From an uncultured bacterium (GTDB taxonomy: Bacteria; Bacillota_I; Bacilli_A; RFN20; CAG-826), in contig CASGDR010000001.1 of the NCBI GenBank assembly GCA_949300345.1, positions 259,835 to 323,834 of the forward strand: DNA of 64,000 nucleotides, given 5' to 3'. Positions 44,843-56,846 of this stretch are shown here, piece by piece. Under the pieces are notes generated by a model, which was given only the letters and a program-made list of their open reading frames with translations, ran no database searches and was not told the origin of the DNA. Position numbers and translations under genes: made by a program. Position 1 is the first letter of the stretch. Each line of letters starts with the position of its first letter.

Positions 44843-47800
44843 TCATTGGCCCCTAAGGGCAGTGAAGACGTTATTGGTATTGCTGGTTAAAGAGGTTTCG
44901 GCGAAGGGACGATAGACGTCATATCCCCCGCTACTAGAGAAGTCATAGCGCTTGGCATCAAGCGCATCATAAAGGGCGCCGGCATAGATGAAGTTACCAA
45001 GATCGAGTGCCGACTGGTCATCGCCACAGGCCAAGAGGATGTCGGCAATCTTGTCGAATTCCTCATTGAAGGAATACTGGTTGTCCGGATTGACGCTCAT
45101 GTAGCTAAGCAGGAGGATGCGGCCGAAGGCATAGAAGGACTGCTGGTCCTTGCTTAGTCCTCCATATCTATCCAGGGTTTCGCTGAAGGTGGCGTCATTA
45201 TATCCGCGTGGGAGATCCCCGCTATATACGGTGACCGAGGAAGTAGTGCCGTAAAGGGAACTCAATAGCGGACGGAAGATCCTCATGTTGTTCTCCCAGG
45301 CAGTCTGACCTTCCGGGGTTTGATAGCTGGATTTCCTATTATACATATCCGCATAAGTCATACTTACGGGCTGGGAGTCGTAATCATAGACAACATGGGT
45401 GCTATAGACGCTGTAATCGCCATACTCGGCGTTCATGGCCGCGATGTCCATGGATAGGCCGACATATAGATAGGAAGCGAATTTGGATCCGGCCGAGGTA
45501 GCATAGGCCTCATATTCATAGGGATAGACGGTCTCGAAATTCTGCCTTAATAGAGCATCCGAACGCAGCATGGTCAGGAAGGAACCGATCCTGGGGGTGG
45601 AGAAACCCTGCTGTGAAAGCTCAACCGTCGCTTCCTCGTAGGACTTCAAGGCAATAAGCGAAGGCAAAAGGCTATCCAGCGCAGCCCCTTCTTTGGGATA
45701 GCTGTATTCATTCTGGCTAGCATCCTCAAGGACGCCGAAGGCAGCCTCAAGGTTATACAAGGCATCGTTGGCTATAGAACCAGTTCCGTATCCCTCATTG
45801 AAATAGGAGGACATGTCTAGGGAGAGGGAATAAGAGATACCCAGATATGTGACCGAATAATTGATATCAAGCAACCGGGAGAAGACCACGGCCCGGCCGC
45901 TGACCTCATTCTGGCTACCGGAGGCCTGATAAGAGGCCACCGGGGTGGCATAGAAGCCGCCGCTGGCGCCGATGAACTCCAGCAAGGGTTCGGTCCCGAT
46001 GGCGGCGATGACTTCAAGGAAGCCCTGGGGGTTGGTGGCATCGAAGGAGAAGTAGCGGCTTTCGCCCTCCGCGCTGGGTTGCATTTCCAACCCTTGAAGG
46101 GCATCGACCAAAATGGGAATGGCCTCTTCCTGGTAGCGCACCCTGGCCTCTTCAGTAGTCATGGCCTCGCGGAAATAGAAGTCGCTCACGTCATTGAGGG
46201 CGCTGCAGGAAGTGATTTGCAAACTACTGGAAGTCCCGTTATAGGAAAGATCGAAGCCATAGGCCCCATATTCATCGATGGGAATAGTAAAGGCGTTGTT
46301 TTCACCGACCAGGGAAGAAAGGTCGATCTCAAAGCTGTGGTTCTCCCTATTGATGTCATGGACTATTAGGGTAAAGTCCGAGAGACTAACCATCTCGTTG
46401 GTGGTGAAGCTGATGGTTTCCACCCGTCCGATGTCGTCGCTGGTAATGCTTATCGAAGAACCCGAAATGAAATCTTGCAGATCGCTTTCATAAAGCGTGT
46501 ACTGCTCCATGATGACCGCGGTGGAAATCAGATAGTCGGTCTGGAAGGCCACCGAACCGGCAACGGTCTTCAAATCGTTGATGGCGCTGAGGATGGATTC
46601 GATTTCCTCGGGAGTGAAGGTATCAAGGACATCGCGGAGGTTGGAGACATCATCCAAAGAGGAAGAGGACATGCCCGAATCCTGCCAGGCCTCGATGAAG
46701 CCTTTGGTAGTGCTATCGCTACCGATGGTAAGGGCCTGGATTTCATGCAAGATGTATTCGGCCCCTTCCGCCCTAAGGAATATGATGGAGTCATAAAGCT
46801 TGTTGGAACCGCCGATCTCATTGCCTGATAAATCCCTTAGATCATAGTAGTATTCTGCTTCGGTTGTACCGGGAGTCCTATTATAAAATGCCTGCAAATC
46901 CGCCATATCCTGCAAGAAATGGGTACCGCTGGAATTGGTTAGGGAGAGCATGAAGAGGGCGTCTTGCACCTCATCGAAATAGAAGGACGCGAAGCCTTTG
47001 GAGGAGAAGAAGGTGAATAGCATCTGCTCCAAAACGGTGAGGTTATTGGGCAAGACATCGATCTGGCTACGGATGGCGCTGGCATTGGCGGGATTGGGCT
47101 CGGCGCGATGGAAGACATAGGATTCGGCCAAGACCATCATGGTGTCGTGGATCTTGATCGGGGAGATGTAGTCCAAGACCTCGGGATTGAGCAATTCGGA
47201 GTTGGAATCCAGAACCTCGACGCAGGAGGCGATGGCCTCGATTTCGCTAGCGGGGTAGCGGCGGCTCCAGTCGGACTCGGAAGTCATGGAGGCGCTATCC
47301 TCGTCGAAGTAATAGTTGAAGAAGGGATAAGCCAAGGAGAAGTCGATCTTGGAGGATGCCCCGTAATCCTTATCGAGTTGGGTCAGGAAATTGTCGATGA
47401 TGTTGGGCACCAGATCATAGAGAAGCTCGCTGCTATTGAGCGCGGTCAATACGGTATAGATTTCATCCGAGGAGAGATCCTCAATGGAGAAGGAGCCGTC
47501 CTTGATGAGCGGAACGATGGCCGCCAGGGCCTGCCCTAGCCCACCGTCTTTGCCGTCGATATAGCTTCTCTGCAACGAGTTCCCTTGGGGATAGTCGACG
47601 ATGGAAATCTCACTGCCGTCGGGGTTGACCCAAGTAGCGGGGAAGTAATATTCGCTGACTAGGTAATCGATATAGCTATCCGAATCGGTGATTTCGGGAT
47701 GATCTGCCAATACGGCTTGTATCTTCGGATTCCTTTCATTGAAGATGTATTCGGCCACGACGTCCTCGGACATCACGGAAATCATCGTGCTTTGGAAGAA

Positions 47801-50800
47801 GGTCAGGGTCTGCCCTTCCGCCACGGTGTTGAAAATATGCGATGAGTGCAGATAGACGAGCAGGGAAATGGTCTCATCGGTATTGGCGAAGGTCGTACCG
47901 GTGACCTGGGATACCCCATAGAGGATTTCCACCAAAAGGTCGGTTTCCGAAACGCTGGGTGTCACTTCCCCTTCTTCCAGATAACCTGAAAGCCCGAAGC
48001 CATAGCCAAGATCGGGATCGACATAATCGAAATTGGCCTGATCAAGACTCACCCCGCCAAAGGCAATGGAAGCAGTTTCGATATTGGCTTTGATCTGGAC
48101 CAAAAGGGCCGGGAAGAGGAGTTTGGAGCTATCCATCTCAAGCAGAAGGGCCTTCAGGGTGTCCTTCTTCTCCTGCACCGAAGAGGGGTTGCCGGAGAAA
48201 TAGGCCTGGATGTCGCTCAAACAGGACATGTTGATGTTGCCCTCATCATCGATGAAGCCGCCATCGCGGGCAATTTCCAAAACGGTGACCAAATGGTTGG
48301 TTTCCTCATTCCAAAGGGAGTGGTCGCTTAAGGTGGGGTCGATGCTCAGCAAATACCCGTCGACATCATCCTGGCTGGAACTTCCGTATAGCCCGGAGTC
48401 AGATAGCCATTGGCCGATCAATCCCTCGGCTGCGGTCAGCTCGGTCCTAGCGCTGGTTCCGTCATAGCCGTAAAGGGTATTGAAGATGTTGGAATTCAGC
48501 AAGGACTCAAAGACGGGACGGACCAGGTATTCGGGATCGAGGTGGCTAAGTCCCATATCGGTGACGATCTGTCCGTTTTCGATAAGGCCATAGGTCGGGT
48601 CCAAAACGGCAGTGGCCAAGGTCTTCAGATGCTTGAGTTCGGCCTCCCTTATCTCCAGGTTCCCATAGTTATCGAATAGATAGGCCACGTTGGCGTTATC
48701 CAGCCTCGAATAGCCGCTTTCCTCGCGGAAGGAATCGCCCATCGCGTCCCTCAATTCGATGACGAGGCGGGTAAGGATGAGCTTGCCAAAGGCATCGCAC
48801 TCCGAGAGGGCATCGAGGAACTCGGTGGCCTTATAGGGGCTAAGGGAACTGATGGAGGCTATGGCATCGAAACCGCCAAACGACTGCAAGAGGGCGATGA
48901 GGTCACACCAGGCCGCGGATTCCCCGTCCCAAGCTTCGGGGGTATCCAGAGCCAAAAGCGATTCTTTGAGGATATCGTATTCCTGCCCTTCAAGGACCGC
49001 CAAATCCTGCTTGGAGGATGAGGTGTCCAAATAGGTCGCCTGCAGGAAATCCTCGGCTTCGGTGCCCTCAATGGAAGAGGTTAGTGTTTCATAGATGAAT
49101 TCAGGGAAGAGGAATTCGCCCTCAGGCGACATGAACAGCTGGCTGTTGGCGCAGACATTGAGGATCCCCTCGATGGACTCCGGATCGGAATTGAAGAAGT
49201 CGATGTTGGAAAGATCGCCCACTTCCGAGGCAAAGACCAATAAGGAATAGATGCCATCCCCTTCCTTGGCCCAGTCGGTCACGTTATGGAAGCTGATTCC
49301 GCTATCTTCGCCAAACAAGGTCGGCAAGAGATAAGTATCGAACATCTCGCTGAGCCCGTTTTCCAAAATGAAGGACTCCCCGATCGAGGCAAAGATGGCT
49401 ACGAAGTCTGCCCTAGAGATGTTGGTAAGCACCCGCAGCATAGAGGAAATCTCCGTAGAAGCAGCGTCGCTCAATAGATATTGCAGCAATCCTGTATCGT
49501 TCATCGCAATCAGGGTGTCGGCGATCGCCACGTTCTCGGCATGGGTATCGATGTTCTGGAAATCGCTGACCGAGAAGATGGAGGACTCGCTTCCGAAGGA
49601 GAAGAGATTGTCCATCATCATCGCGTAGTTGGTGTTGATTACCGTGTTGCCCTGTGCATCCGTCGTATCGGGATTGAGGATCTTGGAATCGGCCACCAGA
49701 TCGAGCAGGTAGCTAAGGACCGAAACCGTTTCCCCTTCGCTTACTACGGTTTCCTCTAGCAGCCTTGTAAGGGTATCAAGGCTCGAGGAGAGGTCTGAAG
49801 CATCGAGGTTCTGCAAATCAGGCAGGAAGGGATTGAGGGCTTGGACCCCACGGATCAAGGAAGCCAATTCCGAGCCGAGGTTATCGGCCTTGAAATCAAG
49901 TGGCAGGGCCCCTTCTCCGAGCAGGTCGGCCACAATGCCGGTATCCTCGACATAGTATTCGATGACCGGCGGAAGAATGGCGGTGGCCACCAGCGATTCG
50001 TCGAATTGGTTCAAGGCATCGACCAAAGCGTCATATAGGTCGTCATTGACGGAGACGAGCTTGCCGTTGGGGTCGATGTAGATGCCCGGATGCTCATCGA
50101 AGTCTTCCATCAGCTTCACGGCATCGGGATGCCCGTCGAGGAATTGCACCATGACGCCAAGCAGGGCGTGGAACTCCCCCTTGTAGTTGATCATGGTCTG
50201 GACCCGGTTTTCCAAATCGAGCTGTTCGACGACCGAATCCATGTCGATATTGATGTTGCCTTCCCCGAGGCTTTCGTTGATGGTGCTAGCCAAAACCTGA
50301 AGGACCTTGTCTAGTCCGTTGATGATTAGATCGCTATCGAAAAGGCAGCTCGTATCCCCGTCCGACTTCCCGGTCGTAGGATCGATTTCGTTAAGATCGC
50401 CTACCATTAGTTCGCTGATTTCCTGGGGATGGTTGGCTATGAAGGAAAGGATGGGATCAAGGTCAATCTCCCCGGAATTGTCGACCAAAGAAGCGATGAG
50501 GTCATTGAGGAATTGGCTATCGATGGAGACGGCATTGAAGACAAAGTCATATAGATAGGTAAGCTCGTCGCCCCATTTGATGTCCTTGAATTCGTCGGTC
50601 ACCCCGACCGGAATCCCGTCTTTGAAGACATAGGTGGACTCGGGCATGAAGTCGGAGATCGAAAGGGTGGTATCGCTTTCGGGAGAGGGATTTTTAACCT
50701 CGTTGGCGCAGGCGACATAGGCCAAGGAATCGAGGATATTTTCCAGAAGTTCCCAGCTGCCGTCATCCAAGGAATCGAAGATTTCGAGGATTTCCTCGCG

Positions 50801-52021
50801 GGTTTCCTCTTGGAAGAAGTCGATGAGGTAATCGGTGTTGTAGCCAAGGTTGCCGGCCTCATCGGTATTGACGCCTTCGAGGGCTCCCGAATCGAAGACG
50901 GCCTGATAAAGTGCGGCCAATTGTTCGAAGGTTCCCTCCCATTGCTCGGAGGTGCTATCGATGCCCTCGACGGTCCTGAGGTAATTGCCTATATCGGTGA
51001 TGTTGGTGGCCACCTGGAAGGCATAGGGCATGACCGTGGTGACAAGCTGCGAGCCCGCTAGGCTATATAGGATCTGCGGGGTGGACTCGGAAGTGATCAA
51101 GGTGGCTACGATTTCGCCCTGGGTGGAATCCTCGAAGTCGACGCCGGTGGCCATGATGTTGGAAGCGATGCTTACCACCGAGGAGAGCTCAGTGACGAAG
51201 CTGACGGTCGTGCCTCCGATATTGGAAGCGGTCAAAGCCTCGATGAGCATTGCGTCGAAGGTCTTGCCCGAGCCGGCCGTCCAATTGAAGAAGGCCTGGG
51301 CAAAGATGGAATTCTCATAGGCATCAAGGACATCGACGATCTGGCCATAGGTTGAATCATCGGCATAGAGCTTCTCGCCGTTTTCGTCTACCCTAGCGAC
51401 CCCTTGGTTGATGGTATTGATGATGGCCGATAGAGGGAAAATCACCATGCATCCGCAGGTTAAGGAAATGATTACGGCCGTAAGGGCATTCCAGATACGC
51501 CCTTTGCGGAGTTTCCTCTTCCTTGTCTGGGCCTTGAAGAACCACCGGAACATGACATACCAGAAAAAGCTGGTAAGCCAATTGATCAAGGTGATGAGCA
51601 ATAGGCCATAGGCTATCAGAAGGAAGATCTTCAGAAGCGAACTGGTCAATGAGGTGGCATAGGCCGTAAGCGAGGCCGGATCCAAGGTGGTCCCGAGGGC
51701 GATGAGGGTCTGCTCGATCAGTTCCTCCATCGTCGCAAACGGGGTGGTCAAAGGCACCGATATGACATACGCATCATAACTGAAGGAAATGTTCGTGCCT
51801 AAGAAGGAAAGGTCGATATCGCCAATGACGCCGGCCATGGCATCTAGACTAAGCAGCATCACCAATATCCAAAGGGCATAGACCAAAAGGCGGTAGACGG
51901 CATAGCGCCATCCGTGCAGGAGTCCCCAGAGAAAAGAGATCAAAAGCGAGGCCAAAACCGCCCAAAAGGCGATGGTAAGCCCCAAAGAGAGGAATTCGAT
52001 TATCTGGGCGAAATCAGGCAT
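44843..52021 (-). CDS. giant acidic membrane-anchored protein (2392 aa), unknown family
   Basis: Single uninterrupted ORF. The N-terminal ~200 aa hold 4-5 TM helices with a positive-inside loop (KAQTRKRKLRKGR). The remaining ~2150 aa are rich in D, E, S, T, L, N and Y, very poor in K and R, have few Cys, and show no LPXTG motif or tandem repeat visible by eye. Confidence 0.8.
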   Translation of the reverse strand: MPDFAQIIEFLSLGLTIAFWAVLASLLISFLWGLLHGWRYAVYRLLVYALWILVMLLSLDAMAGVIGDIDLSFLGTNISFSYDAYVISVPLTTPFATMEELIEQTLIALGTTLDPASLTAYATSLTSSLLKIFLLIAYGLLLITLINWLTSFFWYVMFRWFFKAQTRKRKLRKGRIWNALTAVIISLTCGCMVIFPLSAIINTINQGVARVDENGEKLYADDSTYGQIVDVLDAYENSIFAQAFFNWTAGSGKTFDAMLIEALTASNIGGTTVSFVTELSSVVSIASNIMATGVDFEDSTQGEIVATLITSESTPQILYSLAGSQLVTTVMPYAFQVATNITDIGNYLRTVEGIDSTSEQWEGTFEQLAALYQAVFDSGALEGVNTDEAGNLGYNTDYLIDFFQEETREEILEIFDSLDDGSWELLENILDSLAYVACANEVKNPSPESDTTLSISDFMPESTYVFKDGIPVGVTDEFKDIKWGDELTYLYDFVFNAVSIDSQFLNDLIASLVDNSGEIDLDPILSFIANHPQEISELMVGDLNEIDPTTGKSDGDTSCLFDSDLIINGLDKVLQVLASTINESLGEGNINIDMDSVVEQLDLENRVQTMINYKGEFHALLGVMVQFLDGHPDAVKLMEDFDEHPGIYIDPNGKLVSVNDDLYDALVDALNQFDESLVATAILPPVIEYYVEDTGIVADLLGEGALPLDFKADNLGSELASLIRGVQALNPFLPDLQNLDASDLSSSLDTLTRLLEETVVSEGETVSVLSYLLDLVADSKILNPDTTDAQGNTVINTNYAMMMDNLFSFGSESSIFSVSDFQNIDTHAENVAIADTLIAMNDTGLLQYLLSDAASTEISSMLRVLTNISRADFVAIFASIGESFILENGLSEMFDTYLLPTLFGEDSGISFHNVTDWAKEGDGIYSLLVFASEVGDLSNIDFFNSDPESIEGILNVCANSQLFMSPEGEFLFPEFIYETLTSSIEGTEAEDFLQATYLDTSSSKQDLAVLEGQEYDILKESLLALDTPEAWDGESAAWCDLIALLQSFGGFDAIASISSLSPYKATEFLDALSECDAFGKLILTRLVIELRDAMGDSFREESGYSRLDNANVAYLFDNYGNLEIREAELKHLKTLATAVLDPTYGLIENGQIVTDMGLSHLDPEYLVRPVFESLLNSNIFNTLYGYDGTSARTELTAAEGLIGQWLSDSGLYGSSSQDDVDGYLLSIDPTLSDHSLWNEETNHLVTVLEIARDGGFIDDEGNINMSCLSDIQAYFSGNPSSVQEKKDTLKALLLEMDSSKLLFPALLVQIKANIETASIAFGGVSLDQANFDYVDPDLGYGFGLSGYLEEGEVTPSVSETDLLVEILYGVSQVTGTTFANTDETISLLVYLHSSHIFNTVAEGQTLTFFQSTMISVMSEDVVAEYIFNERNPKIQAVLADHPEITDSDSYIDYLVSEYYFPATWVNPDGSEISIVDYPQGNSLQRSYIDGKDGGLGQALAAIVPLIKDGSFSIEDLSSDEIYTVLTALNSSELLYDLVPNIIDNFLTQLDKDYGASSKIDFSLAYPFFNYYFDEDSASMTSESDWSRRYPASEIEAIASCVEVLDSNSELLNPEVLDYISPIKIHDTMMVLAESYVFHRAEPNPANASAIRSQIDVLPNNLTVLEQMLFTFFSSKGFASFYFDEVQDALFMLSLTNSSGTHFLQDMADLQAFYNRTPGTTEAEYYYDLRDLSGNEIGGSNKLYDSIIFLRAEGAEYILHEIQALTIGSDSTTKGFIEAWQDSGMSSSSLDDVSNLRDVLDTFTPEEIESILSAINDLKTVAGSVAFQTDYLISTAVIMEQYTLYESDLQDFISGSSISITSDDIGRVETISFTTNEMVSLSDFTLIVHDINRENHSFEIDLSSLVGENNAFTIPIDEYGAYGFDLSYNGTSSSLQITSCSALNDVSDFYFREAMTTEEARVRYQEEAIPILVDALQGLEMQPSAEGESRYFSFDATNPQGFLEVIAAIGTEPLLEFIGASGGFYATPVASYQASGSQNEVSGRAVVFSRLLDINYSVTYLGISYSLSLDMSSYFNEGYGTGSIANDALYNLEAAFGVLEDASQNEYSYPKEGAALDSLLPSLIALKSYEEATVELSQQGFSTPRIGSFLTMLRSDALLRQNFETVYPYEYEAYATSAGSKFASYLYVGLSMDIAAMNAEYGDYSVYSTHVVYDYDSQPVSMTYADMYNRKSSYQTPEGQTAWENNMRIFRPLLSSLYGTTSSVTVYSGDLPRGYNDATFSETLDRYGGLSKDQQSFYAFGRILLLSYMSVNPDNQYSFNEEFDKIADILLACGDDQSALDLGNFIYAGALYDALDAKRYDFSSSGGYDVYRPFAETSLTSNTNNVFTALRGQ

Positions 52022-52114
52022 TGGTCGACCTTTTTGTTAGGGGCCCAAAGCCCCAACACGCGTTATTATGGCAAAACTTTGCCCTTATTGCTATCGCAAT
52101 GTATCATTTTGGCC

Positions 52115-52969
52115 ATGGGTATCTTCCTAGGAAACAAACTTTGCGAAAACTGCTCGAGGTCCTATGACAGGGCCAAGGACAAATGCCCCCACTGCGGATA
52201 TGAGAATCCCGACCCGCGCTCAAGGGGTTTCATCAACTTCGAACCTCCCGGCGTCCCAAGGGAGCTTGCCCTATGCTTCGGCGGCTATCTGATGCTGACG
52301 TTTGTGGCTGCCATAGTCCAATTCATATACATCGGGATTTTCTCCGCCGGCTATACCGGTAGCGAAGCGGATTATGCCAAAGCCCTAAGCGACTACCTCA
52401 TGGCCCCCTCCCAGCTTTCGGTCATCCAATATGTCTCCTACGGGGTGGTTGCCGTGGCGGTCTGCGCCTTGTTTATCGGACATTGGAAGCCGCTTTTGCG
52501 GAAATTCCGGCCCAAAAGGATGTATTGGGCGGCCATTGCCTTCATTGGCATGTACGCCTTCAACATCTTCTATAGCCTCATTCTGAATGCGGCCGGGGTT
52601 TCCATCTCCGACAACGAAAACCAGAGCCTGGTGGTAAGCCTGGTCCGATACAATGTTCCCCTAGCGATAATCTTCCTGGGGCTAGTGGGTCCCTTGGTCG
52701 AGGAGTTCATCTACCGGGTCGGGGCCTTCGGCTTGCTCTCTCGCATCAACAAATACGCGGCCTATGTCCTTGGGGCCATCATATTCGGACTCATCCATTT
52801 CGATTTCACCAACCCCAGTGTCAACGAACTGCTAAACCTCCCCAACTACATCGTCCCGGGCCTACTGCTTTGCCTAGCCTATGATAAGTGCGGCCTCATC
52901 GCCTCCTACAGCGTCCACGCCTTGAACAACGTGCTTTCGGTGATCCTTGCAGCCGCCGGGGTGAAATGA
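52115..52969 (+). CDS. CPBP (CAAX/Abi) family intramembrane metalloprotease with an N-terminal zinc-ribbon
   Basis: Start taken at the ATG at 52115, after the end of the divergent giant gene. The N-terminus carries CENCSRSYDRAKDKCPHCG. CPBP motifs are EEFIYR, FGLIH and HALNN. Confidence 0.7.
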   Translation: MGIFLGNKLCENCSRSYDRAKDKCPHCGYENPDPRSRGFINFEPPGVPRELALCFGGYLMLTFVAAIVQFIYIGIFSAGYTGSEADYAKALSDYLMAPSQLSVIQYVSYGVVAVAVCALFIGHWKPLLRKFRPKRMYWAAIAFIGMYAFNIFYSLILNAAGVSISDNENQSLVVSLVRYNVPLAIIFLGLVGPLVEEFIYRVGAFGLLSRINKYAAYVLGAIIFGLIHFDFTNPSVNELLNLPNYIVPGLLLCLAYDKCGLIASYSVHALNNVLSVILAAAGVK

Positions 52970-53886
52970 TGCAAGAAGAACTCGAACTCTCCCGCTACCC
53001 AGGGCCCAAATCCATGAAGCTGGACGGCTTCTGGCTGAAGATCCTCGGCTTGTTTTTCATGACCCTCGACCACATCGGGCTAGCCATGAACGGCCCGGAA
53101 GGCTCCCCTTTATATTGGGCTTCCTTTGTTTTGAGGATCTTCGGTAGGTTAGCCTTCCCCATCTTTGCCTTATTGCTTGCCGAGGGATTGAAGCACACCC
53201 ACTCCAGGGGCCTATATATGTTAAGGATTTCCATCATGTGGGGTTCCATCATGGTGGTGCAGGCCATACTTATCTTCTGCTTTGGCTTTGACGGGCTTCA
53301 GGAGCAGGCCTTCTCCGACCTCATCGGGATGGGCATGTTCATCTATCTTCTTGAACATAGGAAGAAATGGCTGAGGCCCTTCTGTATCATCCCCTTTGCC
53401 TATCTAGCCGCATCCTACGCCATCAGGATCTATTCCAACTACACCGTCGCGGTAAGCGACTTCCTCTTCCTCTTCGGAGGATATTCGATGCTGGGTTTCT
53501 TCATCTTCCTCGGCTTCTATTATTCCGAGAAGATCGTCAGATGGTCCTTCTCCCTCAATTCGACCTTCGATGACAAAGCCATATTGGACGAATATGCCAA
53601 ATCCGGGGCCTTCCGCTTCTATAGCAACCTGATGGGCGTCTTCCTGATGATAGTGAGCTGCACCATTTTCTACGCCATTGCGTTATGCACCCAGAACTCC
53701 GAAGGGATATCCCTAGCCGACCCCTATGGGATGGGGACCCAGTTCTACTGCGTCTTCTCGGGGTTGCTTATCGCTTGCTATAACGGAAAGCGTGGGTACA
53801 ATGCAAAGTGGTTCCAGTACGGAAGCTATCTCTACTATCCCCTGCATCTGCTTGTGATATTCGGGATTGCCTATCTGGTTGCCTAA
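52966..53886 (+). CDS. TraX family membrane protein
   Basis: Start taken at MMQEELEL, overlapping the CPBP stop (ATGA). The LKILGLFFMTLDHIG N-terminal signature and polytopic topology fit the TraX family. Confidence 0.6.
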   Translation: MMQEELELSRYPGPKSMKLDGFWLKILGLFFMTLDHIGLAMNGPEGSPLYWASFVLRIFGRLAFPIFALLLAEGLKHTHSRGLYMLRISIMWGSIMVVQAILIFCFGFDGLQEQAFSDLIGMGMFIYLLEHRKKWLRPFCIIPFAYLAASYAIRIYSNYTVAVSDFLFLFGGYSMLGFFIFLGFYYSEKIVRWSFSLNSTFDDKAILDEYAKSGAFRFYSNLMGVFLMIVSCTIFYAIALCTQNSEGISLADPYGMGTQFYCVFSGLLIACYNGKRGYNAKWFQYGSYLYYPLHLLVIFGIAYLVA

Positions 53887-53902
53887 ATAAGGAGGAAACC
53901 CA

Positions 53903-54208
53903 ATGCTAGTGCACGTTTCAAACAAAGAAGAATTCGACGCCCACATCAAAGGCGACCGCGTCGTGGTGGATTTCTACGCCACCTGGTGCGGACCCTGCAT
54001 GATGCTCTCCCCCATCATCGAAGAACTCGCCGACGAGCTTGACGACATCGATTTCCTGAAGGTCGATGTGGACCAGCTCCCCGAACTGGCCGCCCCCTTC
54101 AGGGTCAGCTCCATCCCGGCCGTTTTCTACCTCGAAAAGGGAAAGGTCGTCCAGAGCCAAATCGGTTATGCCCCCAAGGCGAGTCTAAGAAAAAACCTCG
54201 GATTCTAA
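53903..54208 (+). CDS. trxA: thioredoxin
   Basis: 101 aa with the WCGPC active site. Confidence 0.9.
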   Translation: MLVHVSNKEEFDAHIKGDRVVVDFYATWCGPCMMLSPIIEELADELDDIDFLKVDVDQLPELAAPFRVSSIPAVFYLEKGKVVQSQIGYAPKASLRKNLGF

Positions 54209-54261
54209 GAAAACCACTTTAAAAGCCCCGTTACTTTGGGTATAGTTTCGGGGCGCACCTT

Positions 54262-54338
54262 GGACCATTGGTGTAGCGGCCTAACATGCCTCCCTGTCAC
54301 GGAGGAGACCACGGGTTCGAATCCCGTATGGTCTGCCA
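54262..54338 (+). tRNA. tRNA-Asp (GTC)
   Basis: Cloverleaf by eye. The anticodon stem-loop is CCTCC-CTGTCAC-GGAGG, the T-arm is ACGGGTTCGAATCCCGT, and the 3' end is GCCA. Confidence 0.85.
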
Positions 54339-54341
54339 GAC

Positions 54342-54415
54342 GCAGGTGTAGTTCAGTGGTAGAACATCAGCCTTCCAAGCTGACTATGCGAGTTCGATTC
54401 TCGTCACCTGCTCCA
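54342..54415 (+). tRNA. tRNA-Gly (TCC)
   Basis: GCAGGTGTAGTTCAGTGGTAGAAC...TCAGC-CTTCCAA-GCTGA...GTTCGATTC...CACCTGCTCCA, lying 3 nt after tRNA-Asp. Confidence 0.85.
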
Positions 54416-54420
54416 CTCGA

Positions 54421-54450
54421 AAAAAGCCCCGACAATGTCGGGGTTTTCTT
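54421..54450. terminator. rho-independent terminator after the tRNA pair, also positioned to terminate the convergent 54450..55535 gene
   Basis: AAAAAG-CCCCGAC-AAT-GTCGGGG-TTTTCTTT. Confidence 0.6.
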
Positions 54451-55535
54451 TACTGATCGGACTCGTCGTCCTTTATTTTGGCTTCGCCGTCGATGACGCC
54501 GTCGCGCTTGGCTTTCTCGTCTTCGATGTCCTGCCTCATCTTATCGAGGTTGGCTTGGGTGGCCGCTTGGCTTTGCTCGGCGGCCCTGATTGCAGACTCG
54601 GCCATCTTGAAGGCCGATTCCTTGATGCCGAGGTCGCGGTCTTCGCATAGATGGTACTCGAGCAGGAAAATGTAGGGACCCAATATTACGGCGAAGAGAA
54701 TGAGCCCGGCCACTCCCCCGCAGACGGCATAGCCGGTGATGTAATAGATCTGTCCCGGATAGCAGATGACCCAGGTAAGGGAAGCGCCTAGTACGAAGCC
54801 CCCTGCTAGCAATAGATAGACCGGCCATAGGCCCTTATAGAGGCTGGAGGAGAAACTACGGTCCTCCATCTTATAGAGCCTTTTGAGCATCAATGCCGCC
54901 ATGGGGTTGAAACCCTTGGCCAGGCGCCGGCGGAATTCGACGTTGGAGCTTTCCTGGATGATGAAGAAAGCGGCCAAAACGATGAAGATCCCGGCCTGGG
55001 CGATGGCCTCGCCGAAATAGAAATAGGATAGGGCGGAGCCTTCCGAAAGGATGGAGATGGCCAGATTCAGATCGCCGGCGGATACGGCTTGGCCAAGACG
55101 GGACAAGGCATCGGCGAAGGAGGGATCGTTGATGAGGACCCCATAGGCGATGGATAGGCCGATGGTCCCTAGAAGAATCGAGAAAAGCCAGGACTTGATG
55201 ATGCTCCAAGTAACCCTATAAGAGCCATAGTAGAGGGGCTGGAAATAGGCCCCGACCCTTTGGAAGAAGCCGGAGGCGGACAAAAAGCCCCTGTTGTTGC
55301 GTAGGTAAAGGACGGTCAGATGCATCCCGAAGAAAAACGGAATGAAGATGAAAGGCAGGGTGATGATGAGCAGGCTATAGGAGAGGAAGCCTAGGGCCAG
55401 AGCGGCAGCCCCCATGGCGGTGACCGCGAGCATGATGGGCCAAAGCCAGGGCAATATCTTCCAATAGTCGCTTAGGGCCCTAAGATAGGGCGATTTGGTT
55501 TTTTCAGGCATCTTTTTCCCTCTTGTAGTAAGCAT
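54450..55535 (-). CDS. hypothetical polytopic membrane protein with a charged C-terminal tail
   Basis: 361 aa with about 8 TM helices. The C-terminal ~60 aa are rich in K, E and D and predicted helical. Confidence 0.5.
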   Translation of the reverse strand: MLTTRGKKMPEKTKSPYLRALSDYWKILPWLWPIMLAVTAMGAAALALGFLSYSLLIITLPFIFIPFFFGMHLTVLYLRNNRGFLSASGFFQRVGAYFQPLYYGSYRVTWSIIKSWLFSILLGTIGLSIAYGVLINDPSFADALSRLGQAVSAGDLNLAISILSEGSALSYFYFGEAIAQAGIFIVLAAFFIIQESSNVEFRRRLAKGFNPMAALMLKRLYKMEDRSFSSSLYKGLWPVYLLLAGGFVLGASLTWVICYPGQIYYITGYAVCGGVAGLILFAVILGPYIFLLEYHLCEDRDLGIKESAFKMAESAIRAAEQSQAATQANLDKMRQDIEDEKAKRDGVIDGEAKIKDDESDQ

Positions 55536-56127
55536 ATAGGTTTCTGATGGTGTTGTAGAGTTCCTCGCTCCTTAGGTCGGCCACATCGGCTGATTCGGAT
55601 TTGGCTATGGTTTCTGCTAGTCGGGAGAGAGGGACAAGCAAGGGCGAATTGCCCCGGTTATGGTATGGGGAAAGGAAACAATCGTCATTGACCACGACGA
55701 TGGCGACCATGTAGCCGGCCTCGATGCCCGAGCGGGCCGAGAGCTTGGCCAAGATGGATTCGGCGGCATCAAGGGGCGAATCTATGTAATGCTTCCCGTT
55801 TTTGTCATAGACGATCCACTTCTTGTCGTCGGGGTTAAGCGAAATGCCCCCTTCGCAATACAGGTCGAAGATGAGATAGAGGAACTTGTCGCCCCCGATC
55901 AGGTGGTCGATCTTGACCTCATAGTCCCCTTCCTTGATCCCCATCTCGTTGATGAGGTAGTAGTCATGGTCGAGGACGATTTGCCTGATCTTCTTGTAGA
56001 AGAGGCGGTTGGGCCGCTTGGAATAGATCTTCCTTTTGATGGGCTTATAGAAGAACCATAGGAAAAAGAGGATGCCAAGCAGCGAGGCAACGACGATGAA
56101 AAGGGCAAGCCTGGCTTCGTATGGCAT
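55504..56127 (-). CDS. NERD-domain protein with an N-terminal TM anchor
   Basis: Start taken at MPYEARLALFIV, overlapping the deoD stop. The ORF-track 70-aa N-terminal extension would overlap deoD. NERD-like segment: EVKIDHLIGGDKFLYLIFDLY. Confidence 0.5.
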   Translation of the reverse strand: MPYEARLALFIVVASLLGILFFLWFFYKPIKRKIYSKRPNRLFYKKIRQIVLDHDYYLINEMGIKEGDYEVKIDHLIGGDKFLYLIFDLYCEGGISLNPDDKKWIVYDKNGKHYIDSPLDAAESILAKLSARSGIEAGYMVAIVVVNDDCFLSPYHNRGNSPLLVPLSRLAETIAKSESADVADLRSEELYNTIRNLYAYYKREKDA

Positions 56128-56846
56128 CAGTCGCTGAAGGCCTCCCCGGCCTTGATGGCAACCTTGATCATGTCCAAAAGGGATGTCTGCCTTTCCTCGG
56201 CGGTCAGTTCGTCGGCATATAGGAAGGAATTGGAAACGGTAAGGACGCTTAGGGCCCTCTTCCTTTTCTCGGCAGCGATCGCGTATAGGGCATAGGATTC
56301 CATGTCCACGCCTAGGACATTGAGCCCGGCCCACTTCTTCCAGGTATTGGGGTCATGGTCATAGAAGACGTCGCTGGAGAAGACATTGCCCACATGGTAG
56401 GGAATGCCCATGGCCTTGGCGGCCTTGATGGCCTCCTCGAGCACCTGATAGTCGCAGCAGGCCGAATAGGTTCCATTGAGGTTATAGGAGGCAAGGAAAT
56501 TGGAATCGGTGGAACTCGACATCGCGAAGATGAGGTCCTTCAGGGCGATGCCCTTCTGATAGGCCCCGGCCGTCCCGATGCGGATGATGGTCTCGACCCC
56601 GAAGTGGTCATAGAGCTCGGTGGCATAGATCCCGATGGAAGGGATGCCCATGCCCGAGGCCATGACCGACATCTTCTTGCCCGACTCGGTGGTCCCGGTA
56701 TAGGCCAAAATGCCCCTGACCTCATTGATGAGGACGGCATCCTTGAATAGGGTTTCGGCTACCAGCTTGGCCCTCAAGGGGTCCCCTGGCATCAGTACGA
56801 CCTTGGCGAATTCCCCTTTTGGGGCGATGTGTGGCGTGGATTTCAT
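56127..56846 (-). CDS. deoD: purine nucleoside phosphorylase, DeoD type
   Basis: 239 aa. VVLMPGDPLRAKLVAETLF...GMGIPS is nearly collinear with E. coli DeoD. Confidence 0.9.
   Translation of the reverse strand: MKSTPHIAPKGEFAKVVLMPGDPLRAKLVAETLFKDAVLINEVRGILAYTGTTESGKKMSVMASGMGIPSIGIYATELYDHFGVETIIRIGTAGAYQKGIALKDLIFAMSSSTDSNFLASYNLNGTYSACCDYQVLEEAIKAAKAMGIPYHVGNVFSSDVFYDHDPNTWKKWAGLNVLGVDMESYALYAIAAEKRKRALSVLTVSNSFLYADELTAEERQTSLLDMIKVAIKAGEAFSD

Follow-up and report, generated by a model that had tools for sequence, protein, structure and literature searches.

The question raised by this locus is whether three small genes that stand beside a very large one exist to serve it. In the 64,000-nucleotide stretch of DNA analysed here, which we refer to as the window, the genes for a CPBP/Rce1-like intramembrane protease (CPBP), a TraX-family membrane protein (TraX) and a thioredoxin (Trx) run divergently from a gene for a giant protein of 2392 amino acids (aa). 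An earlier, sequence-only reading had taken the trio for a dedicated processing unit of the giant protein. This proposal failed a check of co-occurrence: in 54 of 78 judgeable species (about 70%), orthologues of the three genes have no giant gene beside them, and the trio is independent of the adjoining giant gene.

The reading that we favour, with confidence somewhat better than even, is that the trio is a vertically inherited core-genome operon of a lineage of uncultured gut and rumen Bacilli that lies at least partly within the GTDB order RFN20, and not an accessory module around the giant gene, with CPBP and TraX forming a membrane pair whose substrates are encoded elsewhere. As a lineage-wide gene pair, CPBP and TraX are undescribed, and each adds a new member to a family already known. 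The main features are listed below.

52115..52969, + strand: CPBP/Rce1-like intramembrane protease, 284 aa (Pfam PF02517)
52966..53886, + strand: TraX-family polytopic membrane protein, putative transmembrane acetyl/acyltransferase, 306 aa (Pfam PF05857)
53903..54208, + strand: thioredoxin of the TrxA type, 101 aa (TIGR01068, PF00085)
52022..52114, no strand: divergent intergenic region from the giant start to the CPBP start, 93 nucleotides (nt)
44843..52021, - strand: giant gene, 2392 aa (from the list of open reading frames, ORFs, and the sequence)

Conservation of the operon across species

Linkage was examined in a sample of one genome per GTDB species, which was scanned with a CPBP alignment and from which the best 80 loci (28-50% identity) were taken. 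These loci come from uncultured gut and rumen metagenome-assembled genomes labelled Bacilli, Erysipelotrichaceae RUG, Mollicutes UMGS, UBA3207 and Candidatus Fiminaster equi. Ca. Fiminaster corresponds to the GTDB genus UBA3207, in the order RFN20 and the family CAG-826 (PMC8957277), and the window organism probably belongs in or near that order. The window's own species lies outside these 80 best representatives, among which its best CPBP match has 36% identity, whereas a match of 98-100% would have come first. We scored linkage from ORF calls and from tblastn searches in which the proteins of the window were compared with each locus.

Wherever the locus is long enough for a judgement, CPBP, TraX and Trx keep their order and strand. 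CPBP is followed by TraX in 79 of 79 judgeable loci, including one (L084) that was missed by tblastn and recovered by a profile at E 1e-47, and Trx follows TraX wherever the contig reaches, typically at 7-27 nt. Searches of metagenome contigs that started from CPBP, Trx, TraX or the giant protein led to the trio in the same order. Among the lineage loci examined, none has CPBP without TraX or TraX without CPBP.

In the window, the last 4 nt of CPBP are also the first 4 nt of TraX (ATGA, 52966-52969), and in most of the approximately 76 species compared the TraX start lies between -4 and +4 nt from the CPBP stop, at protein identities that fall to approximately 28-35%. That this junction has been kept despite such divergence argues that selection maintains coupled translation, a typical trait of partners, and the tight coupling upholds the treatment of CPBP and TraX as a unit. 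The sequence-only reading had described all three genes as translationally coupled. This is true of CPBP and TraX but not of Trx, which begins 16 nt after TraX, without overlap, and has its own Shine-Dalgarno sequence, AGGAGG (53890-53895), 7 nt upstream of its ATG. When distance matrices are correlated with control for the divergence of the M24 and FGGY proteins, the partial r is 0.52 for CPBP and TraX versus 0.31-0.32 for either of them with Trx, a weak signal that would fit co-evolution of the pair.

The trio stands in a larger syntenic block, with DUF5677-FGGY-M24-(ParA)-Impact_N on one side and CPBP-TraX-Trx-tRNA-Asp/Gly on the other; the divergent partner of CPBP in most species is Impact_N. 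In 58 of 66 related loci, a tRNA-Asp gene, a tRNA-Gly gene or both follow trx at a distance of no more than 400 nt. The same three genes, with the same starts, are called on near-identical metagenome contigs (97-100% protein identity), which were found in the ENA assemblies ERZ16268xxx and ERZ17292900 and in the Logan runs ERR10610xxx.

TraX relatives outside the lineage

The CPBP-TraX pairing is specific to this lineage. Three TraX genes on Firmicutes megaplasmids (B. cereus, E. gilvus and Subdoligranulum) have no CPBP gene beside them, and a metagenome scan made with a three-sequence alignment gave 80 loci of other TraX relatives in which no ORF matches the CPBP profile. The 122 immediate neighbours of those TraX genes belong most often to CN_hydrolase, response regulator and ABC ATPase families; Rce1-like proteins are not among their 25 commonest Pfam families, although one or two stray members are possible. 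A single match to the CPBP motifs, obtained near other TraX genes with a regular expression, was rejected as a spurious Arg-rich antisense ORF. The best 120 of 673 TraX homologues are all single-domain proteins, with no TraX-CPBP fusion among them, and a literature search for a link between TraX and CPBP returned nothing relevant.

The giant gene and its protein

Of the 78 judgeable species, 24 have a homologue of the giant gene in the interval from Impact_N to CPBP. In the other 54, the trio is intact, the locus has no giant gene and Impact_N is 27-114 nt from CPBP, a gap that leaves no room for a giant gene there. The giant-positive species fall into at least six separate clades of a neighbour-joining tree built from concatenated TraX and CPBP, and trios without the giant gene were also seen on metagenome contigs retrieved through CPBP or TraX (two TraX-first retrievals). 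The simplest reading of this pattern would be an ancestral gene that has been lost many times.

The giant homologues are 22-29% identical. Their full-length ORFs encode 1962-2671 aa, and a profile picked out two shorter forms, of 619 and 853 aa. Loci of the family include L018, L020, L047, L063, L076:7821-9680 and L087:7046-9607. A large protein database holds only ten clusters of giant homologues. Metagenome contigs yielded seven giant clusters at the same site, six by giant query and one through its CPBP neighbour (L015). In the six found by giant query, Impact_N comes next, directly or overlapping, so the giant gene belongs to the Impact_N-M24 transcription unit, as the first gene ahead of Impact_N-M24-FGGY. 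It is an optional gene heading the Impact_N operon, and its product may be, at best, one substrate among many for the neighbouring pair. We regard the giant gene next door as a subject for separate study and not as a client of the CPBP-TraX-Trx operon.

A hydropathy scan of the giant protein finds hydrophobic segments at residues 10-28, 45-63, 128-146 and 183-201, with a K/R-rich loop (160-175) between the third and the fourth. After residue 201 comes an acidic domain of approximately 2190 aa with a net charge of -263, which is predicted by the positive-inside rule to lie outside the cell. The best-conserved parts are the anchor and the stretch around residues 900-1000; toward the C-terminus, conservation falls off. 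The protein has no Pfam, NCBIfam or PADLOC match. The family as a whole has a conserved four-helix anchor and a core of approximately 900 aa, followed by a variable acidic C-terminal extension, and was seen only in this Bacilli lineage.

The CPBP protease

CPBP proteins are glutamic intramembrane endopeptidases and, to our knowledge, most CPBP proteases have no known substrate. The identities that the sequence-only reading gave to CPBP, TraX and thioredoxin were all borne out, by family profile scores above the cut-offs and by motifs read in the sequence, and the features it described lie where it placed them. The CPBP protein matches PF02517 at 55 bits against a cut-off of 22.4 (E 1e-14, profile positions 5-93 of 93). 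Its motifs, as originally described, can be read directly from the sequence: EEFIYR at 52700-52717 (EExxxR), FGLIH at 52784-52798 (FxxxH), HALNN at 52916-52930 (HxxxN) and an N-terminal cytoplasmic Cys4 zinc ribbon of the CxxC...CxxC type, formed by C10/C13/C24/C27 (CENC...CPHC, nt 52142-52195).

The residues E196, E197, R201, H228, H268 and N272 are the same in all 76 orthologues, with the giant gene or without it, and the protease is probably catalytically intact. The zinc ribbon occurs in approximately three-quarters of the CPBP orthologues and has no consistent association with the presence of the giant gene, in a comparison that is confounded by phylogeny. An AlphaFold2 (AF2) model of the protein (pLDDT 80.6) has two short strands at residues 7-18, around the first CxxC pair of the Cys4 site, followed by a helical bundle. 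The protein does not reach any of the NCBIfam equivalogs: the best, MroQ, scores 34.3 bits against a cut-off of 270, and other named CPBP equivalogs (MrtJ, the ABC permease/CPBP fusion and M949_0222) score 23-33 bits against cut-offs of 75-435.

The TraX protein

The second protein matches PF05857 at 73 bits against a cut-off of 25 (E 4e-20, profile positions 5-216 of 217) and is 24-26% identical to TraX-annotated proteins of Bacillus and Enterococcus. TraX has been described as a divergent, borderline member of the TmAT superfamily, whose members take acyl groups from acyl-CoA in the cytoplasm and hand them to extracytoplasmic acceptors (PMC12423673). The residues D35-H36, G60-R61 and H294 are kept in 70-76 of 76 orthologues and in an alignment of 80 sequences, which fits the TmAT-type motif (PMC12423673), and E73-G74 is likewise conserved in 76-80 homologues. 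An AF2 model has a pLDDT of 93.8. The score against the TrbP subfamily model is 18.5, below its cut-off of 206.

Neither the window nor the conserved block contains tra/trb or pilin genes; the neighbours there are housekeeping genes. Compared with the TraX proteins of the B. cereus and E. gilvus megaplasmids, those of the lineage carry an insertion of approximately 60 aa, predicted to be helical, at residues ~186-250 (window 53520-53720).

The thioredoxin

The third protein passes the TIGR01068 equivalog at 102 bits against a cut-off of 96.8 and matches PF00085 at E 5e-26. It has the WCGPC motif at approximately 53984-53998, and it has neither a signal peptide nor an N-terminal hydrophobic segment. 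It looks like the cell's ordinary cytoplasmic TrxA, most likely just co-transcribed with CPBP and TraX. At most, and speculatively, it might keep the zinc-ribbon cysteines of CPBP reduced.

The divergent spacer

The spacer upstream of CPBP measures 27-141 nt over all species and 61 nt in the closest relative. Where the giant gene is present it is 79-141 nt long; without the giant gene, the spacer is the 27-114 nt between Impact_N and CPBP. A consensus scan of the window's spacer found a promoter-like pair on the + strand, TTGCCC (52079-52084) and TATCAT (52102-52107), 17 nt apart, the second of which stops 8 nt ahead of the CPBP ATG. No Shine-Dalgarno sequence can be seen in front of this ATG (52079-52115); the mRNA of CPBP and TraX may lack a leader entirely or almost entirely. 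Directly upstream of the giant start codon is an 8-bp palindrome, GGTCGACC (52023-52030), and a small hairpin, GGCAA-AACT-TTGCC (52070-52083), overlaps the putative -35 element of the CPBP promoter. Either of these could be an operator, or could have arisen by chance. An Rfam scan found no RNA element in 52022..52114.

The sequence-only reading had also raised a small precursor-peptide ORF in or around 52022..52114. None fits: the window ORFs of 20-48 aa, all within 52022-52167, overlap the CPBP start, and the 61-nt spacer of the closest relative is too short to hold such a gene. In one related species, CPBP and the giant gene are separated by a gene for an HTH_3 (XRE-type) regulator, which shares the strand of the giant gene (L190:3331-3936).

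What the pair may do

Under the reading that we favour, CPBP and TraX would be made in a fixed ratio and would act jointly on membrane or extracytoplasmic proteins encoded elsewhere. F TraX offers a model: it is required for the N-acetylation of F-pilin and acts on a protein N-terminus exposed after leader removal, and within the TmAT superfamily TraX alone modifies proteins (PMC12423673). In a sequential version of the mechanism, built on this analogy, CPBP would cut at or near the membrane and TraX would acetylate the new amino group. In a second version, based on a complex, CPBP would present the substrate to the acyltransferase, in the way that LnsB does for LnsA. The invariance of the protease motifs favours cleavage followed by acetylation over a pure scaffold role.

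We propose, tentatively and at well under an even chance, that this is a new two-enzyme system for envelope proteins in RFN20-type Bacilli, which would perform intramembrane cleavage and trans-membrane N-acetylation or, in another form, LnsAB-like N-acetylation of lipoproteins. If true, it would be the first physiological role of chromosomal TraX homologues outside conjugation, the sole characterised TraX member being the F-pilin acetylase (PMC12423673), and the giant protein would possibly be one client where it is present. The conserved, coupled pair provides a concrete and testable hypothesis, cleave and then acetylate, in a form compact enough for heterologous expression.

The main rival to our favoured explanation is pure synteny, to which we give a substantial minority weight: CPBP, TraX and Trx would have unrelated functions and each would act alone, in a gene order frozen in small genomes. 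The order of Impact_N, the M24 aminopeptidase, the FGGY kinase and the tRNA-Asp/Gly genes is indeed shared by these species, genome reduction is suggested by contigs of 1.3-1.5 Mb, the relatives of TraX found elsewhere stand by themselves among varied neighbours, and Trx is an ordinary TrxA by its equivalog model. A merely frozen order is, however, harder to reconcile with the CPBP-TraX junction of -4 to +4 nt, kept in most species down to ~28-35% identity, with the loci examined, where no genome has one of the two genes alone, and with a partial distance correlation that is higher for CPBP and TraX than for either with Trx. The same synteny bears on the view that the three genes form a dedicated processing unit for the giant protein, co-regulated with it from the shared divergent promoter region. 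Every giant homologue found is immediately divergent from CPBP (24 genome loci and 7 metagenome clusters) across a short spacer of 79-141 nt, and a protein with a four-helix membrane anchor and a very large acidic domain, predicted to lie outside, is of the kind that a membrane protease could release or trim. Yet this constant adjacency carries little weight, because the whole block keeps its place. The 54 species without the giant gene retain the trio with its catalytic residues invariant; the patchy distribution of the giant gene over the tree, with forms of only 619 and 853 aa, looks like the repeated loss of a dispensable gene; the giant gene is operonic with Impact_N-M24 and not with the trio, and the HTH gene of L190 comes between them; and the zinc ribbon does not consistently follow the giant gene. 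We therefore consider a dedicated unit quite improbable.

Two further explanations concern the kind of substrate. In the one, CPBP would bind diacylated lipoproteins after signal peptidase II, and TraX would acetylate or acylate the alpha-amino group of the lipid-modified Cys, much as in the LnsAB system, in which LnsB, a CPBP protein, and an acyltransferase are both needed for lipoprotein N-acylation in S. aureus (PMC7387801, PMC13559823). F TraX likewise acetylates an N-terminus exposed by leader cleavage (PMC12423673), Firmicutes have several lineage-specific chemotypes of lipoprotein N-termini (PMC12345273), and the pair is core and lineage-wide, as would be expected of an envelope housekeeping function. 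We nevertheless think this form unlikely. The CPBP motifs are non-essential in LnsB and invariant here (76/76), a contrast in favour of genuine proteolysis; among the NCBIfam models for CPBP proteins the best match is MroQ, at 34 bits and far below its cut-off, with no LnsB-type match; and lipoprotein N-acetylation in Bacillus is carried out by an unrelated enzyme, LhaT. The idea that this Bacillus enzyme (LhaT/YpjA) is a TraX protein was considered and rejected. The other explanation, a locus for the maturation of, or immunity to, a bacteriocin or signal peptide with a small precursor gene nearby, we judge very improbable indeed. The CPBP family does include bacteriocin immunity and peptide-processing enzymes, and the weak best NCBIfam match is to MroQ, which processes AgrD. 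There is, however, no conserved small ORF in spacers of 27-141 nt, the ORFs of 20-48 aa overlap the CPBP start, with no room for one in the closest relative, and the conserved block has no transporter, kinase or other bacteriocin genes. PADLOC and Rfam scans gave no signal, and for anti-phage defence by an Abi-type CPBP, the PADLOC models match none of the four proteins (CPBP, TraX, Trx and giant).

Several observations weigh against the membrane pair that we favour. Because the whole neighbourhood is syntenic, tRNAs and unrelated enzymes included, adjacency alone is weak evidence of joint function. A pairing seen in one lineage only could be as much an accident of history as an innovation of that lineage, and the mirror-tree signal is modest and could be explained by shared rate effects of membrane proteins. 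Structure adds nothing: in Foldseek searches of the PDB, the CPBP model had no match at E<=0.001 and the TraX model had nothing significant (HGSNAT, 8vli_A, stood at rank 29 with a TM of 0.30, in keeping with the published view of TraX as borderline TmAT), and sequence-profile searches of the PDB with CPBP and with TraX were empty. Finally, no substrate gene was identified at the locus, where the spacers and small ORFs were examined.

Other genes of the window

Directly downstream of the trio lie two tRNA genes and a hairpin.

54262-54338, + strand: tRNA-Asp(GTC) (ARAGORN, Rfam)
54342-54415, + strand: tRNA-Gly(TCC) (ARAGORN, Rfam)
54427..54443, no strand: G+C-rich hairpin CCCCGACATTGTCGGGG with an A-run and a T-run on its flanks (terminator scan and sequence)

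A consensus scan found a promoter-like site at 54218-54246, upstream of the tRNAs. Judged by its form, the hairpin is likely to be a bidirectional terminator for the + strand unit and for the convergent gene at 54450..55535. The latter (- strand) encodes a conserved polytopic membrane protein of 361 aa with a charged C-terminal tail, and it is accompanied by a gene at 55504-56334 (- strand) for a conserved single-pass protein of 276 aa. Neither has a Pfam or NCBIfam match; the counterpart of the second in one related locus (L107) has a weak NERD match.

The rest of the window consists of housekeeping genes, including those for Impact_N/UPF0029, an M24 Xaa-Pro aminopeptidase, an FGGY kinase and AddAB-like nucleases, together with PFK, leuS, glycogen genes, PriA and gmk. 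SbcCD-type genes (a Metallophos nuclease and an SbcC/SMC ATPase) and a GlmS/GlmM pair were recognised from Pfam matches on the near-identical contigs.

Comparison with known systems

Trx differs in nothing from TrxA (TIGR01068) as a protein, sharing its equivalog score, the WCGPC motif, a length of 101 aa and the lack of an export signal; only its fixed place after TraX and before tRNA-Asp/Gly is specific to the lineage. The window CPBP resembles the Rce1/MroQ-type proteases in its Rce1-like domain and in having all of EExxxR, FxxxH and HxxxN. It differs from them in adding the N-terminal Cys4 ribbon, in falling far below every NCBIfam equivalog cut-off and in lying at a locus without an agr-like, bacteriocin or prenylation context.

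In S. aureus, LnsB forms a complex with LnsA to N-acylate lipoproteins, and its protease motifs are dispensable (PMC13559823). The likeness to the window lies in a CPBP membrane protein and an acyltransferase that modify an extracytoplasmic N-terminus (PMC13559823), a function that is proposed for our pair. The partner of LnsB is, however, an NlpC/P60 enzyme encoded at a separate locus and not a TraX protein of the same operon, and the window CPBP has no specific sequence relationship to LnsB.

F-plasmid TraX (PF05857, on the border of the TmAT / Acyl_transf_3 clan) belongs to a conjugation system, whereas the window TraX is chromosomal and core, has no conjugation or pilin genes around it in the 64-kb window and is coupled to CPBP instead of depending on leader peptidase. 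Like the F-plasmid protein, it is polytopic, with the D-H of the first helix and the G-R motif, and, like it, would act after proteolytic processing, which is the logic proposed here for a TraX protein coupled to a protease.

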